From the NCBI GenBank assembly GCA_017561145.1, contig JAFZDO010000001.1, forward strand, positions 2,935 to 66,934: a stretch of DNA of 64,000 nucleotides, read 5' to 3'. How positions within the stretch are numbered: the first letter of the stretch is position 1; each line of letters begins with the position of its first letter. Positions 35,351-45,963 of this stretch are shown piece after piece. A program made the position numbers and the translations under genes. Source of the DNA: Clostridia bacterium. Its GTDB lineage: Bacteria; Bacillota; Clostridia; Oscillospirales; CAG-382. The notes beneath the pieces are model-generated. The model was not told the origin of the DNA. It searched no databases and was given only the letters and a program-made list of their open reading frames with translations.

Positions 35351-35452
35351 ATGCACCACTCCGAAAATACTGTTTTCAATATTATATGGAAAATAATATA
35401 AAATAAATCCCAAAAAAGCGAAACTATTTCGCAAAACAATTAAATTTTTGTG

Positions 35453-35481
35453 TTGACATTGTCGATTTGCTGTGATATAAT
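35453..35481 (+). promoter_or_regulatory. sigma-A promoter of tRNA-Ser
   Basis: TTGACA (35453-35458), a 17-nt spacer, then TATAAT (35476-35481) with an extended TG. Confidence 0.65.
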
Positions 35482-35515
35482 AATCAAGCGCGATTGAGCG
35501 CGAAGTTAATAATAC

Positions 35516-35606
35516 GGAGAAGTCGCTTAGCTGGTCGAGGGCGCACGACTGGAAATCGTGTAACGGATAAAACCGTTCGAGAGTTCGAATCTCTCCTTCT
35601 CCGCCA
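35516..35606 (+). tRNA. tRNA-Ser (anticodon GGA), CCA encoded
   Basis: Manual fold. Acceptor GGAGAAG/CTTCTCC, anticodon stem CACGA/TCGTG with loop CTGGAAA, long variable arm AACGG-ATAAAA-CCGTT, T-arm GAGAG-TTCGAAT-CTCTC, then GCCA. Confidence 0.92.
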
Positions 35607-35610
35607 AACA

Positions 35611-35636
35611 AAAACCACCCAATCGGGTGGTTTTTT
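35611..35636 (+). terminator. terminator hairpin after tRNA-Ser
   Basis: AAAACCACCC-AATC-GGGTGGTTTTTT. Confidence 0.7.
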
Positions 35637-35647
35637 GTTTGGCTTTT

Positions 35648-35784
35648 GAAGAGATTCGAAGGGCGTAAGCCAAACAGTCCGGGGGACTGTTTGGGTAGCC
35701 CCGCGGAGCAGACCGCAACGGAAGAGGCGCGGAGCGCCGCTTGGAGTTGCATTGGGCTGCGGAGGAATCTCTCCTTCTCCGCCA
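35648..35784 (+). repeat. tRNA-3'-end-terminated structured element, Ser-type copy 1 (candidate ncRNA or att-like site)
   Basis: 137 nt and GC-rich. The last 20 nt (35765-35784, GAATCTCTCCTTCTCCGCCA) are identical to tRNA-Ser 35587-35606. The 5' AGAGATTC (35650-57) pairs with GAATCTCT (35765-72). There is an 11-bp hairpin with a GGG loop at 35670-35694, plus further helices GCAAC/GTTGC and GGCGC-GGA-GCGCC. Confidence 0.8.
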
Positions 35785-35788
35785 AAAC

Positions 35789-35820
35789 AAAAGGACAGGC
35801 AATGCCTGTCTTTTTGTTTT
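35789..35820 (+). terminator. second terminator hairpin after the duplicated tRNA 3' end
   Basis: AAAAG-GACAGGC-AAT-GCCTGTC-TTTTT. The flanks are the same as in the first terminator, but the stem sequence differs. Confidence 0.65.
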
Positions 35821-35826
35821 GGCGGA

Positions 35827-35974
35827 ATGAAGCGCACCTGACGGTGCATGAAGCATGAAGTCGCCTACGGCTATGAAGCGTGCCTTCGGCACATTAGGAA
35901 CGAAAAATGCGCTTCGCTTCATGCAAGCGTTAGCGAGTGCTTCATATTGGCGAAGCCAATGCTTCATTTTTCAT
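35827..35974. repeat. array of the heptamer ATGAAGC (x4, forward) and its complement GCTTCAT (x3-4), interleaved with short hairpins
   Basis: ATGAAGC occurs at 35827, 35848, 35855 (ATGAAGT) and 35873. GCTTCAT occurs at 35916, 35939 and 35961, with TTTTCAT at 35968. Local hairpins are GCACC-TGAC-GGTGC, GTGCC-TTC-GGCAC and ATTGGC-GAA-GCCAAT. Confidence 0.8.
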
Positions 35975-36002
35975 TGAAAATACAAAAAACTTATGATATA
36001 CT
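35974..36002 (+). promoter_or_regulatory. sigma-A promoter for the four-helix-bundle operon
   Basis: TTGAAA (35974-79), a 17-nt spacer, then TATACT (35997-36002) with an extended TG. Confidence 0.5.
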
Positions 36003-36024
36003 TCACTTGAAGGAAGGTGTTTAT

Positions 36025-36378
36025 ATGCGCAATGACAAATTATCCACGCAATCGATGGACTTCGCCGTTTCAATTATAAAACTTGTGAAATACTTAAAAG
36101 AAAGCAAAGAGCATATCATTTCCAATCAAATCGGAAGAAGCGGAACAAGCATAGGCGCGAATATCCGCGAGGCACAGTATGCGCATGGGAAAGCGGACTT
36201 TATTGCAAAATTGCAAATAGCCCTAAAAGAAGCCAATGAAACGGGATATTGGTTAGAATTGCTATACAAAACGAATTATATTACAGAAGATCAATATAAA
36301 GATTTAGATGCAGTTTGTACGGGTCTTCGTGCTATGTTAATTGCATCTATTAACACCGCTAAGGAGAATATGAAATGA
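36025..36378 (+). CDS. four-helix-bundle protein of the 23S rRNA intervening-sequence protein family (Avd-like fold)
   Basis: The ATG at 36025 follows GAAGGAAGG. The sequence FAVSIIKLVKYLKESKEHIISNQIGRSGTSIGANIREAQYAHGKADFIAKLQIALKEANETGYWLELL is typical of this family. The upstream part of the track ORF lies in the heptamer array. Confidence 0.75.
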   Translation: MRNDKLSTQSMDFAVSIIKLVKYLKESKEHIISNQIGRSGTSIGANIREAQYAHGKADFIAKLQIALKEANETGYWLELLYKTNYITEDQYKDLDAVCTGLRAMLIASINTAKENMK

Positions 36379-36953
36379 GGTTATACCACGGTTCTATATT
36401 TGCTAATATAACTGAACTGTTGGCGAATTCAACTTTACACGAAAACGCGAATCAAAAGGTTGTCTATCTTACTGACAATATTCCATATGCTCTGTTATAT
36501 ATTTGGGATTCAAACCGTAATTTTAAACAAGGCAAGCACGTTACCGCGTGGATTAAAGAAAACCAAGTATTCTATGAGGAACAATTCCAAAATCAATTGA
36601 GAACTTTCTATGACGGTGTCAGCGGATATTTATATGCGGTAAACAATACTACATCTTTTTCCCCCGTTAACAACCGAGAAGCCATGTGGTTTTCTCCTAA
36701 TAACACAAAAATCGATATAGTTAAATATATCCCGAACGTATACGATGAACTTTGTAAATATATAAATTCAGGCGAATTGAAAGTTATTCATTTCGAGGAT
36801 GTCGATAGCGAAAGAGTTAACGATTTGTATAATTGTATCGTAGATCGAATAATATCCAAGCACTTACTTGAGAACCCCGATGATTCGGACGCGGTTTTTT
36901 ATCAAAAATTTTTTCTTGAGGCATGGGAATTAGCTAAAAGCAAAAACGTATAA
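36375..36953 (+). CDS. hypothetical protein (N-terminal LYHGS motif)
   Basis: 192 aa with AT-rich codon usage and a start overlapping the upstream stop (ATGA). RLYHGS...VVYLT is only faintly reminiscent of H-Y-E ADP-ribosyltransferase-like folds, so no assignment is made. Confidence 0.4.
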   Translation: MRLYHGSIFANITELLANSTLHENANQKVVYLTDNIPYALLYIWDSNRNFKQGKHVTAWIKENQVFYEEQFQNQLRTFYDGVSGYLYAVNNTTSFSPVNNREAMWFSPNNTKIDIVKYIPNVYDELCKYINSGELKVIHFEDVDSERVNDLYNCIVDRIISKHLLENPDDSDAVFYQKFFLEAWELAKSKNV

Positions 36954-37011
36954 TCTTTCGATTGTTCAATTCTATACCTTCTATCATCTGTTTTATTCTA
37001 CCTTTACAAAC

Positions 37012-37057
37012 AAAAACCGCAATTCTGATACAAAAGAGTTGCGGTTTTTGTTTTTTT
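37012..37057 (+). terminator. intrinsic terminator
   Basis: AACCGCAA-N17-TTGCGGTT followed by a T-run. Confidence 0.6.
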
Positions 37058-37099
37058 ATGGTATAATAGAATTACAAAAAACTAAAGGAGGCATTTTCT

Positions 37100-37528
37100 A
37101 TGAAAATATTTAATCCCGCAGATTGTAAGGAACCACCTCGAGCCGATATGTTTTTACCTGATTTTTTAAAATATTTTGGTTTTTTTCTGGATGCTGTAGC
37201 AATAGTATTCTTAGTTGCAACATTTATTACACAAATTTGGGGATTAATTATAGGAGCGCTTATTTGTGGAGGACTTGGTGTCGCAGCATGGCTTTGTTGG
37301 AAAAATCAGACAGTTCGTATCATTGATGAGGATCGCTTTGAATACACTACTTTTTTAGGAAAAACGACCGTATATAATTTCTCAGATATAAAGGCTTTGC
37401 GTGTCAATCAAGATTCCATGACATTGATTTTAACAAATGGAAAAATACATATAGAATCTATGGTACGTATGTCACAAGCTCTTGTCGACAAAATAGATCA
37501 ATCAATCGAAAAAACAAGTAGTAATTAA
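37100..37528 (+). CDS. hypothetical two-TM membrane protein
   Basis: 142 aa with AGGAGG upstream. It has two adjacent hydrophobic helices, then a small soluble domain. Confidence 0.5.
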   Translation: MKIFNPADCKEPPRADMFLPDFLKYFGFFLDAVAIVFLVATFITQIWGLIIGALICGGLGVAAWLCWKNQTVRIIDEDRFEYTTFLGKTTVYNFSDIKALRVNQDSMTLILTNGKIHIESMVRMSQALVDKIDQSIEKTSSN

Positions 37529-37561
37529 AAAGTTTTGTATCAAAATTATGGTTATTAGCCA

Positions 37562-37596
37562 AAAAGAACAACCACCAAACGGTGGTTGTTTCTTTT
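37562..37596 (+). terminator. terminator-like hairpin preceding Ser-type copy 2
   Basis: AACAACCACC-AAAC-GGTGGTTGTT plus a T-run. It is preceded by GCCA, as at the true tRNA end. Confidence 0.6.
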
Positions 37597-37601
37597 TGTT
37601 C

Positions 37602-37731
37602 TGAAGAGATTCGAAGGGCGTAAGCCAAACAGTCCGGGGGACTGTTTGGTTAGCCCCGCGGAGCAGACCGCAACGGAAGAGGCGCGGAGCGCCGCTTGGA
37701 GTTGCATTGGGCTGCGAAGGAATCTCTCCTT
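37602..37731 (+). repeat. tRNA-3'-end-terminated structured element, Ser-type copy 2
   Basis: There are 2 substitutions relative to copy 1 over the shared 126 nt. The match to the tRNA-Ser 3' end is truncated to 13 nt (GAATCTCTCCTTC). Confidence 0.8.
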
Positions 37732-37749
37732 CGACATTTTTTGCGTTAC

Positions 37750-37778
37750 CTTGACAAAATAGCTAAACTGCTATAAAA
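37750..37778 (+). promoter_or_regulatory. probable sigma-A promoter for the 37810 gene
   Basis: TTGACA (37750-55), a 17-nt spacer, then TAAAAT (37773-78). Confidence 0.45.
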
Positions 37779-37809
37779 TAATATCATCAATCCCAAAGGA
37801 GGCAGAAAA

Positions 37810-38292
37810 ATGACGATTGAACAGGCGATATATTTTAAAGTTCTGATTTGCAACGGATACCCCGAAGAGTTGTTGAAATACATTGACACCGCTTTGGAAA
37901 CGCAGGATCCGCTAAGCGACATTGTTTTGGAGATGTCTTTTGCCGCAAATGACGAAGAAAAGCTGATTTCTCTATTAAACGAGCGCATCAACAGTGTAAA
38001 GCCCGAGGAAATCGACTTCGACGGCACTTTGTTCGATATGCTTCTGGCATTCTTCAAAAGAAAATACAGAGAAGAAAATATGCCAATTGATGAGCTTGTA
38101 TATCTTATGTATAGATTCTCGCTCGTTTATGAACCATGGGACAAATGGTGGAATGCTGCAACAAGTCGCCTTTGGCACGTAATGTATTATATGCAGGATT
38201 ACTATGAATTTGGCGACAGGAATGAATTTTTGAAGATGTTGGACGACTTTTTGGATAATAAGATACCTCCCGAATCTCCGTTTTTACGATAA
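37810..38292 (+). CDS. hypothetical small helical protein
   Basis: 160 aa with AAAGGAGG upstream and AT-rich codons. No family recognised. Its size and composition resemble orphan immunity-type cassette proteins (speculative). Confidence 0.45.
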   Translation: MTIEQAIYFKVLICNGYPEELLKYIDTALETQDPLSDIVLEMSFAANDEEKLISLLNERINSVKPEEIDFDGTLFDMLLAFFKRKYREENMPIDELVYLMYRFSLVYEPWDKWWNAATSRLWHVMYYMQDYYEFGDRNEFLKMLDDFLDNKIPPESPFLR

Positions 38293-38350
38293 GAGCAATC
38301 GCATTTTACAATTGAACAGTTTTTGCGAGAAAATTCATCATTGAAAATTC

Positions 38351-38383
38351 AAAACAACCACCCAATCAGGTGGTTGTTTTTTT
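38351..38383 (+). terminator. terminator-like hairpin preceding Ser-type copy 3
   Basis: AACAACCACCC-AATC-AGGTGGTTGTT plus a T-run. Confidence 0.6.
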
Positions 38384-38388
38384 GTTTT

Positions 38389-38514
38389 GAAGAGATTCGA
38401 AGGGCGTAAGCCAAACAGTCCGGGGGACTGTTTGGTTAGCCCCGCGGAGCAGACCGCAACGGAAGAGGTGCGGAGCACCGTTTGGAGTTGCATTGGGCTG
38501 CGGAGGAATCTCTC
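38389..38514 (+). repeat. tRNA-3'-end-terminated structured element, Ser-type copy 3
   Basis: There are 4 substitutions relative to copy 1 over 126 nt. Two of them are compensatory in the GGYGC-GGA-GCRCC hairpin. The tRNA-end match is truncated to 9 nt (GAATCTCTC). Confidence 0.8.
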
Positions 38515-38578
38515 GAAAAATTTTCCAGAATGTATTTCGAGGATATTTTTCTCTTCGCTTTTCATTTTCCGTTTTAAG

Positions 38579-38607
38579 TTGAAAAGCAATTGGCATTGTG
38601 CTATAAT
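38579..38607 (+). promoter_or_regulatory. sigma-A promoter for the serine hydrolase-namZ operon
   Basis: TTGAAA (38579-84), a 17-nt spacer, then TATAAT (38602-07) with an extended TG (TGCTATAAT). Confidence 0.6.
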
Positions 38608-44837: not shown

Positions 44838-44866
44838 TTGACAAACAAAAAAAGATGTGATATATT
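44838..44866 (+). promoter_or_regulatory. sigma-A promoter of tRNA-Glu
   Basis: TTGACA (44838-43), a 17-nt spacer, then TATATT (44861-66) with an extended TG. Confidence 0.6.
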
Positions 44867-44886
44867 ATTGTAGCAATAAGAAATAC

Positions 44887-44961
44887 GGCCTGTTAGTCAA
44901 GTGGTCAAGACGTCGCCCTCTCACGGCGAAGGCAGGGGTTCGACTCCCCTACGGGTCACCA
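44887..44961 (+). tRNA. tRNA-Glu (anticodon CTC), CCA encoded
   Basis: Manual fold. Acceptor GGCCTGT/ACGGGTC (two G-T pairs), anticodon stem TCGCC/GGCGA with loop CTCTCAC, T-arm GGGG-TTCGACT-CCCC, then ACCA. It closely resembles Bacillus-type tRNA-Glu. Confidence 0.88.
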
Positions 44962-44964
44962 CGA

Positions 44965-44999
44965 AAAACAAACCTCACTTTATGTGGGGTTTGTTTTTT
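44965..44999 (+). terminator. terminator hairpin after tRNA-Glu
   Basis: AAACAAACCTCAC-TTTAT-GTGGGGTTTGTTT plus a T-run. Confidence 0.7.
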
Positions 45000-45011
45000 G
45001 TCTTGCAAATT

Positions 45012-45149
45012 GGGAGTCGAAGGGCGCGTGTTGAATGACAGTCCGGGGGACTGTCAGACCGCGCCACCGCTCCGCCCCGGGGTCCCCGAAAATGAACGAA
45101 GTGAGTTTTTGGGGTGGACGTAGGCGGGCGACTCCCCTACGGGTCACCA
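45012..45149 (+). repeat. tRNA-3'-end-terminated structured element, Glu-type
   Basis: 138 nt. The last 21 nt (45129-45149, CGACTCCCCTACGGGTCACCA) are identical to tRNA-Glu 44941-44961. The 5' GGGAGTCG (45012-19) pairs with CGACTCCC (45129-36). It shares the core TCGAAGGGCG and the hairpin ACAGTCC-GGG-GGACTGT with the Ser-type element. Confidence 0.8.
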
Positions 45150-45150
45150 G

Positions 45151-45187
45151 AAAACAAACCTCACTTTATGTGGGGTTTGTTTTTTGT
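45151..45187 (+). terminator. second copy of the tRNA-Glu terminator hairpin
   Basis: Nearly identical to 44962-44999. Confidence 0.65.
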
Positions 45188-45192
45188 ATAAC

Positions 45193-45227
45193 AAAAAAAC
45201 AGACGGTTTCCCGTCTGTTTTGTTTTT
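45193..45227 (-). terminator. terminator for the convergent membrane-protein gene
   Basis: CAGACGG-TTTC-CCGTCTG flanked by A- and T-runs. Confidence 0.6.
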
Positions 45228-45231
45228 AATA

Positions 45232-45963
45232 TTAAAGACCTTTTGCTCTGAGCTTTCTGTCCTTGTTGTCCTGAATCTTGCCGTATACAGCGTAGCCGAT
45301 ATACATACCGAGAATGCAAAGAGGACCAACGGTGGTATAGAAGTTGAGAGTAAGCATGGTGGAAAGGTAGTCAAGGAGAACGATAACACAATTTACGATC
45401 ACTGCAAAGATAACGCCGGACAAGATCTTGAAGATCTTGGAAGAAACGTTTTCGTGGTTTTCCCAAGTGAGGATCATAAGGTTGCCTGCGAATGCAAGGA
45501 TGATGAAGAACAGGATGTACGAGAAGTAGCCGAAGAGCATTTCAGCAGGCTTTTCGCTGAACGCCTGAGGAAGTGTCATCTTATATTCAACAGAGTTGAT
45601 CGAAGGATATTCAGCGGTTTTGGAATCGGGCGATGCATTGAGGTTGGGGATCATATCGAGAACGAGGTAGGAGCCGACAACCAAAACGATGAAAAGCAAC
45701 ACGAGAAGAGTACGTACAAAGCCTTGGATCTTAACTGCTTTTCTCTTGACCGCCTTGTAGATGATAGAAGGAATAGCAAGGACCAACGCCAAGCCGAAAG
45801 CGATTCCAACGTATTTTGCAGCAACACCGAAGAGGTAGCCGATTTCAATAGCGGATTCGGTATTCAAAACAACGAATATAGCAATCAAAGCAATTACTGC
45901 TGCTAAAATCAATATAAGTTTTATATGCTTGCGCAAACTCGATATTACATTAGACATGATCAA
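45232..45963 (-). CDS. hypothetical polytopic membrane protein
   Basis: 243 aa with about 6 hydrophobic helices. No family recognised. Confidence 0.5.
   Translation of the reverse strand: MIMSNVISSLRKHIKLILILAAVIALIAIFVVLNTESAIEIGYLFGVAAKYVGIAFGLALVLAIPSIIYKAVKRKAVKIQGFVRTLLVLLFIVLVVGSYLVLDMIPNLNASPDSKTAEYPSINSVEYKMTLPQAFSEKPAEMLFGYFSYILFFIILAFAGNLMILTWENHENVSSKIFKILSGVIFAVIVNCVIVLLDYLSTMLTLNFYTTVGPLCILGMYIGYAVYGKIQDNKDRKLRAKGL

Follow-up and report, generated by a model that had tools for sequence, protein, structure and literature searches.

A structured repeat behind tRNA genes of gut Clostridia shares the design of the tRNA-linked repeats of Escherichia coli

We analyzed a 64,000-nucleotide stretch of the genome of a Clostridia bacterium (contig JAFZDO010000001.1; hereafter the window), in which a structured repeat lies immediately downstream of two tRNA genes. 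The first of these, tRNA-Ser(GGA), occupies 35516-35606 on the forward strand with an encoded CCA end (called by ARAGORN, and by the Rfam tRNA model at 53.3 bits), and its perfect sigma-70-type promoter, TTGACA-17-TATAAT, is at 35453-35481. It is followed on the same strand by a repeat unit, W1, that opens with a terminator-like intrinsic hairpin and a spacer (T1, 35607-35647; hairpin at 35610-35635 with a T-run behind it), continues with a body at 35648-35764, and closes at 35765-35784 with an exact copy (20 of 20 nt) of tRNA-Ser positions 57-76. A second terminator hairpin, T2, takes up 35785-35823; read straight off the sequence, it consists of GGACAGGCAATGCCTGTC and then TTTTTGTTTT at ~35792-35819, and its A-rich and T-rich flanks are like those of T1 but its stem differs. 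The copied 20-mer, GAATCTCTCCTTCTCCGCCA, occurs in exactly two places in the window, 35587-35606 and 35765-35784, with no third site even at three mismatches, and none of 100 shuffled sequences gave two or more matches. No promoter-like site was found between T1 and the W1 body.

The 137 nt of 35648-35784 fold with a minimum free energy (MFE) of -65.4 kcal/mol (z = -3.8); none of 200 shuffled sequences was equally stable. Near the start of the body, AGAGATTC (35650-35657) exactly complements GAATCTCT (35765-35772), the first 8 nt of the copy, which form the 3' strand of a closing helix, P1; the last 12 nt of the copy form a single-stranded tail with a GCCA end. The body also holds a GGGC/GCCC helix (P2) around an 11-bp hairpin, CCAAACAGTCC-GGG-GGACTGTTTGG (P2a), and the further helices GCAAC/GTTGC and AAG-A-GGCGC-GGA-GCGCC-G-CTT; the composite arm with the GGA loop is called P3. 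The original prediction, made from the sequence of this locus alone, had named these four internal helices, and all of them are in the MFE fold. It had also described a terminator behind a tRNA-Ser(GGA) gene ending at 35606, the 20-nt copy of the tRNA 3' end, the complementarity between the 5' end of the element and the start of that copy, and a second terminator with similar flanks and another stem, all of which we confirmed. Its proposal that a closing helix sequesters the copied strand holds for the consensus structure and for the MFE of other copies, but in the MFE of W1 itself a local 3' hairpin displaces P1.

As had been argued from the missing arms, the element is not a tRNA gene or pseudogene: neither ARAGORN nor the Rfam tRNA model called a tRNA or pseudo-tRNA in 35607-35830, and in the searched tRNA-Ser and tRNA-Glu regions a cloverleaf with acceptor, D, anticodon, and T arms was called only at 35516-35606 and 44887-44961. 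Nor was it recognized as a described RNA family: a search of 35607-35830 with 4227 Rfam models at E <= 10 gave no match. Rfam searches of both tRNA loci, at gathering thresholds and at E <= 10, returned tRNAs only, plus sub-threshold terminator look-alikes.

W1 is one of four copies of the structured repeat in the window, three of a Ser type (35648-35784, 37603-37732, and 38389-38514) and one of a Glu type, linked to two different tRNAs; the original prediction had missed the repeats at 37564-37732 and 38352-38514 and the Glu-type unit at 45012-45149. BLAST of the W1 region against the window recovered the terminator-plus-body at 37564-37732 (92%) and 38352-38514 (94%), on the same strand. The first of these, W2 (37560-37732), has its terminator at 37560-37599 and its unit at 37603-37732, follows a gene for a 142-aa protein, and retains 13 nt of the tRNA 3' end (GAATCTCTCCTTC). 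W3 (38350-38514), with its terminator at 38350-38388 and its unit at 38389-38514, follows a gene for a 160-aa protein and retains 9 nt of the tRNA 3' end. One helix of W3 carries a compensatory change, GGCGC/GCGCC to GGTGC/GCACC. W3 is missing from the relatives L002 and L009 (loci from other genomes are given by their L numbers); its exact insertion boundaries are not definable because the 3' end of the 160-aa gene varies among relatives.

A motif search located the Glu-type unit behind tRNA-Glu(CTC) (44887-44961, forward strand; ARAGORN and Rfam tRNA), which has its own promoter and is the only tRNA in the window besides tRNA-Ser(GGA). A terminator hairpin and spacer (44962-45011) lead on the same strand to the body (45012-45129), and the unit closes with 20 nt (45130-45149) that repeat tRNA-Glu positions 57-76 exactly. 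A second copy of the terminator that precedes the unit follows at 45150-45187, with a further terminator beyond it at ~45190-45229. Because the same terminator stands on both sides of the unit, the direct repeat at tRNA-Glu is ~58 nt long and comprises tRNA positions 57-76 plus the terminator. The Glu and Ser types have in common a GGGCG motif and the CAGTCCGGGGGACTG hairpin; the P3 of the Glu type is long, and R1, the covariance model of the Ser type, gives low scores for the Glu-type unit, 17.6 bits in the window and 22.6 bits in L002.

Two whole-collection DNA scans, of genomes and metagenomes, gave 45 loci, of which seven (L001-L004, L009, L013, and L036) are true, all of them from uncultured gut or caecal Clostridia/Eubacteriales; more relatives were added by look-ups of neighboring proteins. 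A unit stands behind tRNA-Ser in L002, L003, L013, L036, and L047 and behind tRNA-Glu in L002, L056, L057, and L058, and L004 and L058 carry Ser-type units with no intact tRNA-Ser called in the DNA fetched. Placement on the same strand, immediately downstream, is found for both tRNAs of the window and at at least seven related loci. In L004, the anticodon-to-3' part of a tRNA-Ser is kept upstream of the unit (2440-2560), where ARAGORN calls no tRNA; its 5' part appears to have been replaced, and this may be a disrupted tRNA-Ser copy beside a unit.

The number of units varies from zero to three per locus among close relatives. tRNA-Ser is found without a unit in L001, in L048, and in the more distant L051-L055, and L001 is an exact empty site, where the CCA of tRNA-Ser directly meets T2 and the same downstream genes follow. 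Tandem pairs are present in L002 and L058. Reduced forms include an internally deleted 57-nt unit in L002 (441-504), a unit in L056 with P3 reduced to a small hairpin, a truncated unit in L001 (4438-4517), and a fragment in L053. The terminators that flank the Glu-type unit are identical or nearly so within the window, L002, L057, and L058, yet differ between genomes; they are less alike in L061, and in L056 one finds instead a cassette with an intervening-sequence protein (IVP) gene, described below. As judged from the sequences, this pattern is one of concerted evolution of the ~58-nt direct repeat.

In each unit, a terminator hairpin and a short spacer lead to a body shaped as a three-way junction, in which P1 encloses two arms, P2 (GGGC/GCCC) with a hairpin of 9-11 bp and the long composite P3 hairpin. 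In L013, an unrelated sequence takes the place of the 11-bp hairpin inside the GGGC/GCCC helix and has the same shape. The 5' segment of each unit is the exact reverse complement of the T-loop and T-stem 3' strand of the adjoining tRNA: in the Ser type, AGAGATTCGAA is antisense to tRNA-Ser positions 54-64 at 11 of 11 nt (in W1, AGAGATTC(GAA) at 35650-35660), and in the Glu type, GGG(G)AGTCGAA is antisense to tRNA-Glu positions 54-64 (in the window, the P1 5' strand is GGGAGTC(GAA)). At the other end, every tRNA-adjacent unit closes with a sense copy of tRNA positions 57-76, 20 of 20 nt at both tRNAs of the window and perfect in all the others except L003, which has one mismatch. The copy in L013 bears that genome's own acceptor variant, CTCCTCC, as its tRNA does. 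The check suggested with the original prediction, whether each homolog ends like its adjacent tRNA, comes out positive for every tRNA-adjacent unit; distal units keep only 9-13 nt.

The two ends together form P1, an 8-bp helix whose sequence is wholly different in the two types (AGAGATTC/GAATCTCT in Ser, GGGAGTC/GACTCCC in Glu), and their pairing frees the acceptor 3' strand and NCCA as a tail of ~12 nt. The antisense 5' strand has 11 nt complementary to the real tRNA, of which only 8 are paired inside the unit. The chance of an 8-mer complement within ~130 nt is about 0.002, and it is found in two families of different sequence. These data show that the closing helix is tailored to the neighboring tRNA, Ser or Glu.

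Sequence variation among relatives reveals which strand folds. We aligned 12 Ser-type units of related gut Clostridia to a model derived from the proposed structure; an earlier run with nine units agreed. In this alignment, which is biased toward the structure by the fitting although the raw sequences, too, show the compensatory changes, 98.2% of cells hold standard pairs, as against 36-43% when the partners are slid by 1-3 columns. Both sides have changed in 21 of 42 pairs, compared with a mean of 5.2 in shuffled alignments, and 0 of 500 shuffles reach 21. The element is a conserved structured one, and strong covariation on the tRNA-sense strand backs its fold. On that strand, the Glu alignment has 12 G-U cells and no A-C cell, and the Ser alignment has seven G-U cells and one A-C cell; because G-U pairs would be mismatches on the opposite strand, the folding strand is the tRNA strand. 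These results show that the tRNA-sense strand folds into a three-way junction.

Several further structural candidates were considered at these loci. The stems of T1 and T2 can be extended outward (35603-35643 and 35781-35823), with the GCCA of the tRNA or of its copy pairing with a TGGC beyond the T-run; each terminator would then be a hairpin of 18-19 bp, and the CCA end of the precursor would be sequestered in it, an arrangement not seen at tRNA-Glu. Pairing of the NCCA tail with an upstream GCGGAG, as a pseudoknot or hairpin, can be drawn in W1 and L036; it is absent from L013, L004, and the Glu type and was set aside as not conserved. Hammerhead and other three-way-junction ribozymes found no support, there being no Rfam match and no conserved core motif.

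The closest precedent comes from E. coli, where tRNA-linked repeats (TLRs) have been known since 1978 (Egan & Landy 1978; Rudd 1999; reviewed in PMC8144298). [quoted passage not shown] Three of them, RrA, RrB, and RrF, are the TLRs of rrnA, rrnB, and rrnD (Stenum et al. 2021, PMC8144298); their genes, rrA, rrB, and rrF, sit between the T1 and T2 terminators of the rRNA operons, and the RNAs are made by read-through of T1 and then processed (PMC8144298). The authors of that paper propose that the repeat is a processing signal, report that RrB binds Hfq and CsrA via GGA loops, and state that the function of the TLRs is not known (PMC8144298). This precedent, both as RF00391 in Rfam and as RrA, RrB, and RrF (PMC8144298), leaves the novelty and uniqueness implied by the original prediction without support, as does our finding of a dispersed and tandem family at at least two tRNAs.

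We fetched three E. coli loci, tyrT, argV, and rrnB, for comparison. The Rfam RtT model (RF00391) matched four repeats at tyrT with 133-138 bits. Its consensus has the closing helix GGGGAAGGAU/AUCCUUCCCC and the tail CACCACCA, and the 3' strand is a copy of tRNA-Tyr positions 58-76; the argV TLR has the closing helix GGGAGGAU/AUCCUCCC, matched to argV's tRNA. Like the clostridial units, the tyrT (RtT RNA, rttR) and arg TLRs lie immediately downstream of a tRNA gene on the tRNA strand. Both kinds of element end in an 18-20-nt copy of the tRNA 3' end that starts in the T-loop (at position 58 in E. coli and 57 in Clostridia) and ends in CCA, both occur in one to several copies per locus, at times in tandem, and in both an antisense segment pairs with the copied T-stem/acceptor strand in a helix that follows the tRNA and leaves an NCCA tail. 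The order at rrnB is 5S, T1, body, 18-nt copy, T2, and RrA, RrB, and RrF share with W1 the identical layout of stable RNA, T1, structured body, 3'-end copy, and T2, although there the upstream gene encodes 5S rRNA and not a tRNA. Unlike RrB with its GGA loops that bind Hfq and CsrA, the clostridial units have a predicted GGA loop only in part: most Ser-type units keep it, and L047 and the Glu type do not have it.

The two groups also differ. The E. coli TLRs are from Enterobacterales and the clostridial units from uncultured gut Clostridia, and unlike the tyrT and arg TLRs, the clostridial units have their own terminator hairpin before each body and a different three-way-junction interior, and some are separated by accessory genes. 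RF00391 (gathering threshold 45 bits) gave no match in 35400-36050 or 44850-45250 even at E <= 10, and reciprocally, R1 found no match at the E. coli tyrT locus (L046). We found no description of TLR-like elements in Firmicutes in the literature. The clostridial element therefore has the features that define a TLR and follows the same logic of design, with no detectable homology to TLRs.

One short sequence is common to both groups. The motif CGAAGGGCG lies just past the P1 5' strand in both clostridial types (35656-35665 and 45017-45026), with GCCCCGAAGGGCGGGC in its place in the short Glu-type unit of L056. Among the E. coli loci examined for it (L046, L064, and L065), CGAAGGGCG is also in the conserved core of the tRNA-operon TLRs (tyrT and arg: GCCCGAAGGGCGA), and the rrnB TLR carries the related GCCCGGAGGGTGG instead. 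Homology by way of this motif has no support, since neither covariance model links the families, and the shared motif may be a coincidence or a convergent stable hairpin.

We lean toward the view that the unit is a TLR-type module, that is, a structured element between two terminators behind a single-tRNA transcription unit, on the tRNA strand, that yields an RNA by read-through; the balance of probability tips slightly this way. By analogy with rrnB and tyrT, the unit would have no promoter of its own; its transcription would begin at the strong tRNA promoter and read through T1, and the level of its RNA would track tRNA synthesis. The duplicated tRNA 3' end, together with the trailer and terminator, may supply tRNA-like signals for 3'-end maturation, and the product would be a discrete, stable, structured RNA of ~140-180 nt. 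A small RNA with a tRNA-like NCCA end was one of the two readings in the original prediction, and it is the one we favor. The alleles of relatives further suggest that the 20-58-nt direct repeats could bring about precise loss, tandem amplification, and homogenization by recombination with no dedicated enzyme; to this we attribute the zero to three copies per locus, the tandem arrays, and the concerted terminators. The unpaired antisense nucleotides and the exposed acceptor-NCCA tail suggest that the RNA interacts or competes with factors that bind tRNA, or with the tRNA itself, and our leading guess is that the RNA competes for, or titrates, factors that recognize tRNA 3' ends or T-arms.

Several observations weigh against this reading. 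Every unit still has a strong T1 in front of it, and this terminator limits how much of the body is transcribed. In W2 and W3 the body is intact although most of the tRNA 3' copy is gone, so a body can persist without the NCCA tail. Since it is absent from close relatives, the unit is dispensable, and since no homology is detectable, the resemblance to RtT is one of design only. Transcription, read-through, and CCA-ended maturation are proposed entirely by analogy, and folded single-stranded DNA would preserve compensatory changes too.

The main rival to an RNA reading is that the units are a footprint of site-specific recombination, whether in double-stranded or in folded single-stranded DNA. 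In the double-stranded case, each would be a miniature integrated element that is not autonomous, or what remains of such an element, put in place by a tyrosine integrase that is encoded elsewhere and has its crossover in the T-loop. Then attL would be the tRNA with T1 and a 3' end that the element supplied, attR would be the body with the displaced original 3' end and T2, and the downstream units would be secondary att sites from serial integrations. T-loop-targeting integrases reportedly leave a repeat that runs from inside the T-loop to CCA, and the direct repeat from T-loop position 57 to CCA is that classic footprint. The precise empty site in L001 and the varying presence among close relatives also fit, as do the L013 copy, which matches the local tRNA variant, and the strain-variable accessory-gene islet downstream of tRNA-Ser, with units at its junctions. 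The units are like T-loop att sites in having a T-loop-to-CCA direct repeat around an insert and empty-site alleles in relatives, but this insert of 178 bp is geneless and carries no cargo, and the neighboring sequence is selected for single-strand folding.

A Pfam scan of the sizeable open reading frames at 19-52 kb of the window found no integrase, transposase, Xer, or reverse transcriptase, and the genes there are ordinary chromosomal ones with a few small accessory genes among them. Phage and plasmid collections searched by BLAST with the unit gave no match, and two pattern scans of viral contigs (IMG/VR) gave chance matches only, none confirmed by a covariance model, so that no phage, plasmid, or viral contig with the body came to light. 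Double-stranded att arms do not explain the 21 compensatory changes or the G-U asymmetry. Moreover, one body family serves two tRNAs via a matching antisense segment, the tRNA-Glu repeat takes in a host-specific terminator in most genomes examined, and E. coli TLRs also stand behind 5S rRNA, which is not a known integrase target. For the minimal integrated circle that the original prediction had offered as its other reading, the empty site of L001 speaks in favor, but no recombinase or parent element was found. We regard an integrated element as unlikely, though it deserves to be kept in mind.

The units could instead be selfish repeats of the kind known as miniature inverted-repeat transposable elements (MITEs) or repetitive extragenic palindromes (REPs), with no cellular function, kept for a trans-acting transposase (of the HUH/RAYT or IS200/IS605 type, for example) and happening to target tRNA T-arm-like sequences or terminators. 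Several copies within 3 kb and another 9 kb away, truncated and internally deleted copies (L001, L002, and L053), terminal inverted repeats, and sporadic presence are all in keeping with this. However, the family is tiny, confined to a narrow clade and to tRNA-linked loci, with seven true loci in the two whole-collection scans; no target-site duplication of fixed length was seen, and none is consistent around W2 or W3; no transposase was found at 19-52 kb of the window; and the termini are re-tailored to each tRNA, unlike those of any known MITE. We hold this to be distinctly improbable. About as doubtful, in our estimate, is an active tRNA-templated mobile system, in which the unit, as RNA or single-stranded DNA, would fold as a mimic of the T-arm duplex and its antisense 5' strand would serve as a programmable guide. 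If that were true, units would move between tRNA genes (Ser and Glu) and might act as landing pads, gene capture at tRNA 3' ends in Clostridia would be integron-like or retro-like, and the E. coli TLRs too would have a mechanistic explanation.

Fainter still is the chance that the unit is a folded single-stranded-DNA recombination site comparable to integron attC or to the attP of CTX phage, in which P1 recreates the T-arm duplex, a recombinase pairs P1 with the tRNA gene, and the small genes between units are captured cassettes. The units do resemble attC sites and cassette arrays in their inverted conserved ends, their variable yet structured interior of 57-140 nt, and their co-orientation, which is also that of the small, variable, promoter-bearing genes between them; P1 is an exact duplex copy of tRNA-gene sequence 57-64, and cassette content varies by strain. 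They differ from them in that the unit ends, GAAGAGATTCGAAGG and GGAATCTCTCCTTC, have none of the attC R''/R' cores (RYYYAAC / GTTRRRY), no recombinase, IntI-like or otherwise, was found nearby, the units keep to tRNA 3' ends, and not every cassette ends in a unit: the cassettes with a PF05635 IVP gene are bounded by neither units nor tRNA-end copies, and the tRNA-Glu unit of the window has no cassettes. Integrons are, to our knowledge, essentially unknown in Firmicutes.

Least credible is a small RNA gene encoded by the other strand, with a bidirectional T1 as its terminator and a 5' end that is antisense to the tRNA 3' end and would resemble a primer-binding site; it was rejected on the G-U/A-C asymmetry and for want of a conserved promoter. 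T1 does have A- and T-runs to either side, and the minus strand, whose first 20 nt are perfectly complementary to the tRNA 3' end, also has a stable fold (-61.2 kcal/mol, z = -4.2). The G-U pairs, however, become A-C mismatches on that strand (12 cells in the Glu set, seven in the Ser set), there is no conserved promoter on that side, where conservation ends at the unit boundary, and in W2 and W3 the complementary segment is mostly missing.

The region downstream of tRNA-Ser also drew our attention for its gene content. From tRNA-Ser to the beta-lactamase-family and NamZ genes, 35785-38600 is a strain-variable islet (compared with L001, L002, L009, L047, and L058) in which small genes come and go and units lie at some of the junctions. 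The window has genes for proteins of 192, 142, and 160 aa here; other strains have a GNAT acetyltransferase, or sigma-70-like and beta-propeller proteins. The 160-aa protein (37810-38292, between W2 and W3) had a Replitron_C match at E = 0.0085, with 16.9 bits against a 27-bit cutoff, which is probably noise.

One gene in this region is an IVP gene, encoding a PF05635 "23S rRNA intervening-sequence protein," a four-helix bundle. In front of each PF05635 gene that we saw, short GC hairpins form an array of 130-250 nt, with a repeated 7-10-mer and its inverse on the two sides of each hairpin; the architecture is constant while the word varies (ATGAAGC/GCTTCAT, TATATCATCA/TGATGATATA, GTGAAAT/ATTTCAC, and AATGATG/CATCATT). 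Such arrays lie at 35822-35965 in the window, at 3355-3500 in L001, and at 2298-2450 in L083, and on the minus strand at 7540-7380 in L047, 3720-3560 in L051, 3690-3500 in L053, 4975-4800 in L056, and 12400-12240 in L062. The whole IVP module consists of a terminator, the hairpin array, the IVP gene, and zero to two small uncharacterized genes, and it lies directly behind the CCA of a tRNA or behind a unit's CCA copy, at three different tRNAs in different Clostridia: after tRNA-Ser in the window (35785-36953), L001 (3317-4340), L048, L051, and L055, after tRNA-Glu in L056 and L062, and after tRNA-Met in L081-L087 of [Eubacterium] siraeum. The tRNA 3' ends at which modules land may or may not carry a unit. 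The 117-aa IVP protein is 85-95% identical over thousands of database entries, and the adjoining gene for YtvI, a sporulation membrane protein, is ~66% identical between the same lineages. This suggests that the IVP module may be horizontally mobile and target tRNA 3' flanks. We also asked whether a decayed tRNA 3' end closes the IVP cassettes; there was no match within five edits, and the idea was dropped. In L003 (1290-1250, minus strand) and L036 (765-725, minus strand), the terminator after the unit's CCA is AACCGCAAYTCTGAYACAAAGGGATTGCGGTT, which recurs in the window at 36990-37060, between the 192-aa and 142-aa genes; this suggests that the IVP and 192-aa genes may have been inserted between the unit and the AACCGCAAYTCTGAYACAAAGGGATTGCGGTT terminator.

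For annotation, the units should not be labeled att sites, pseudo-tRNAs, or novel riboswitches, and they mark hypervariable islets downstream of tRNA genes. For experiments, the family supplies a structure backed by covariation and natural alleles with zero to three copies. TLRs have so far been treated as an enterobacterial oddity, and their design recurs here in a distant phylum as an unrelated sequence family. This recurrence, together with the strong covariation, argues that the design is selected, not accidental, and is tied to the biology of tRNA 3' ends or T-arms.

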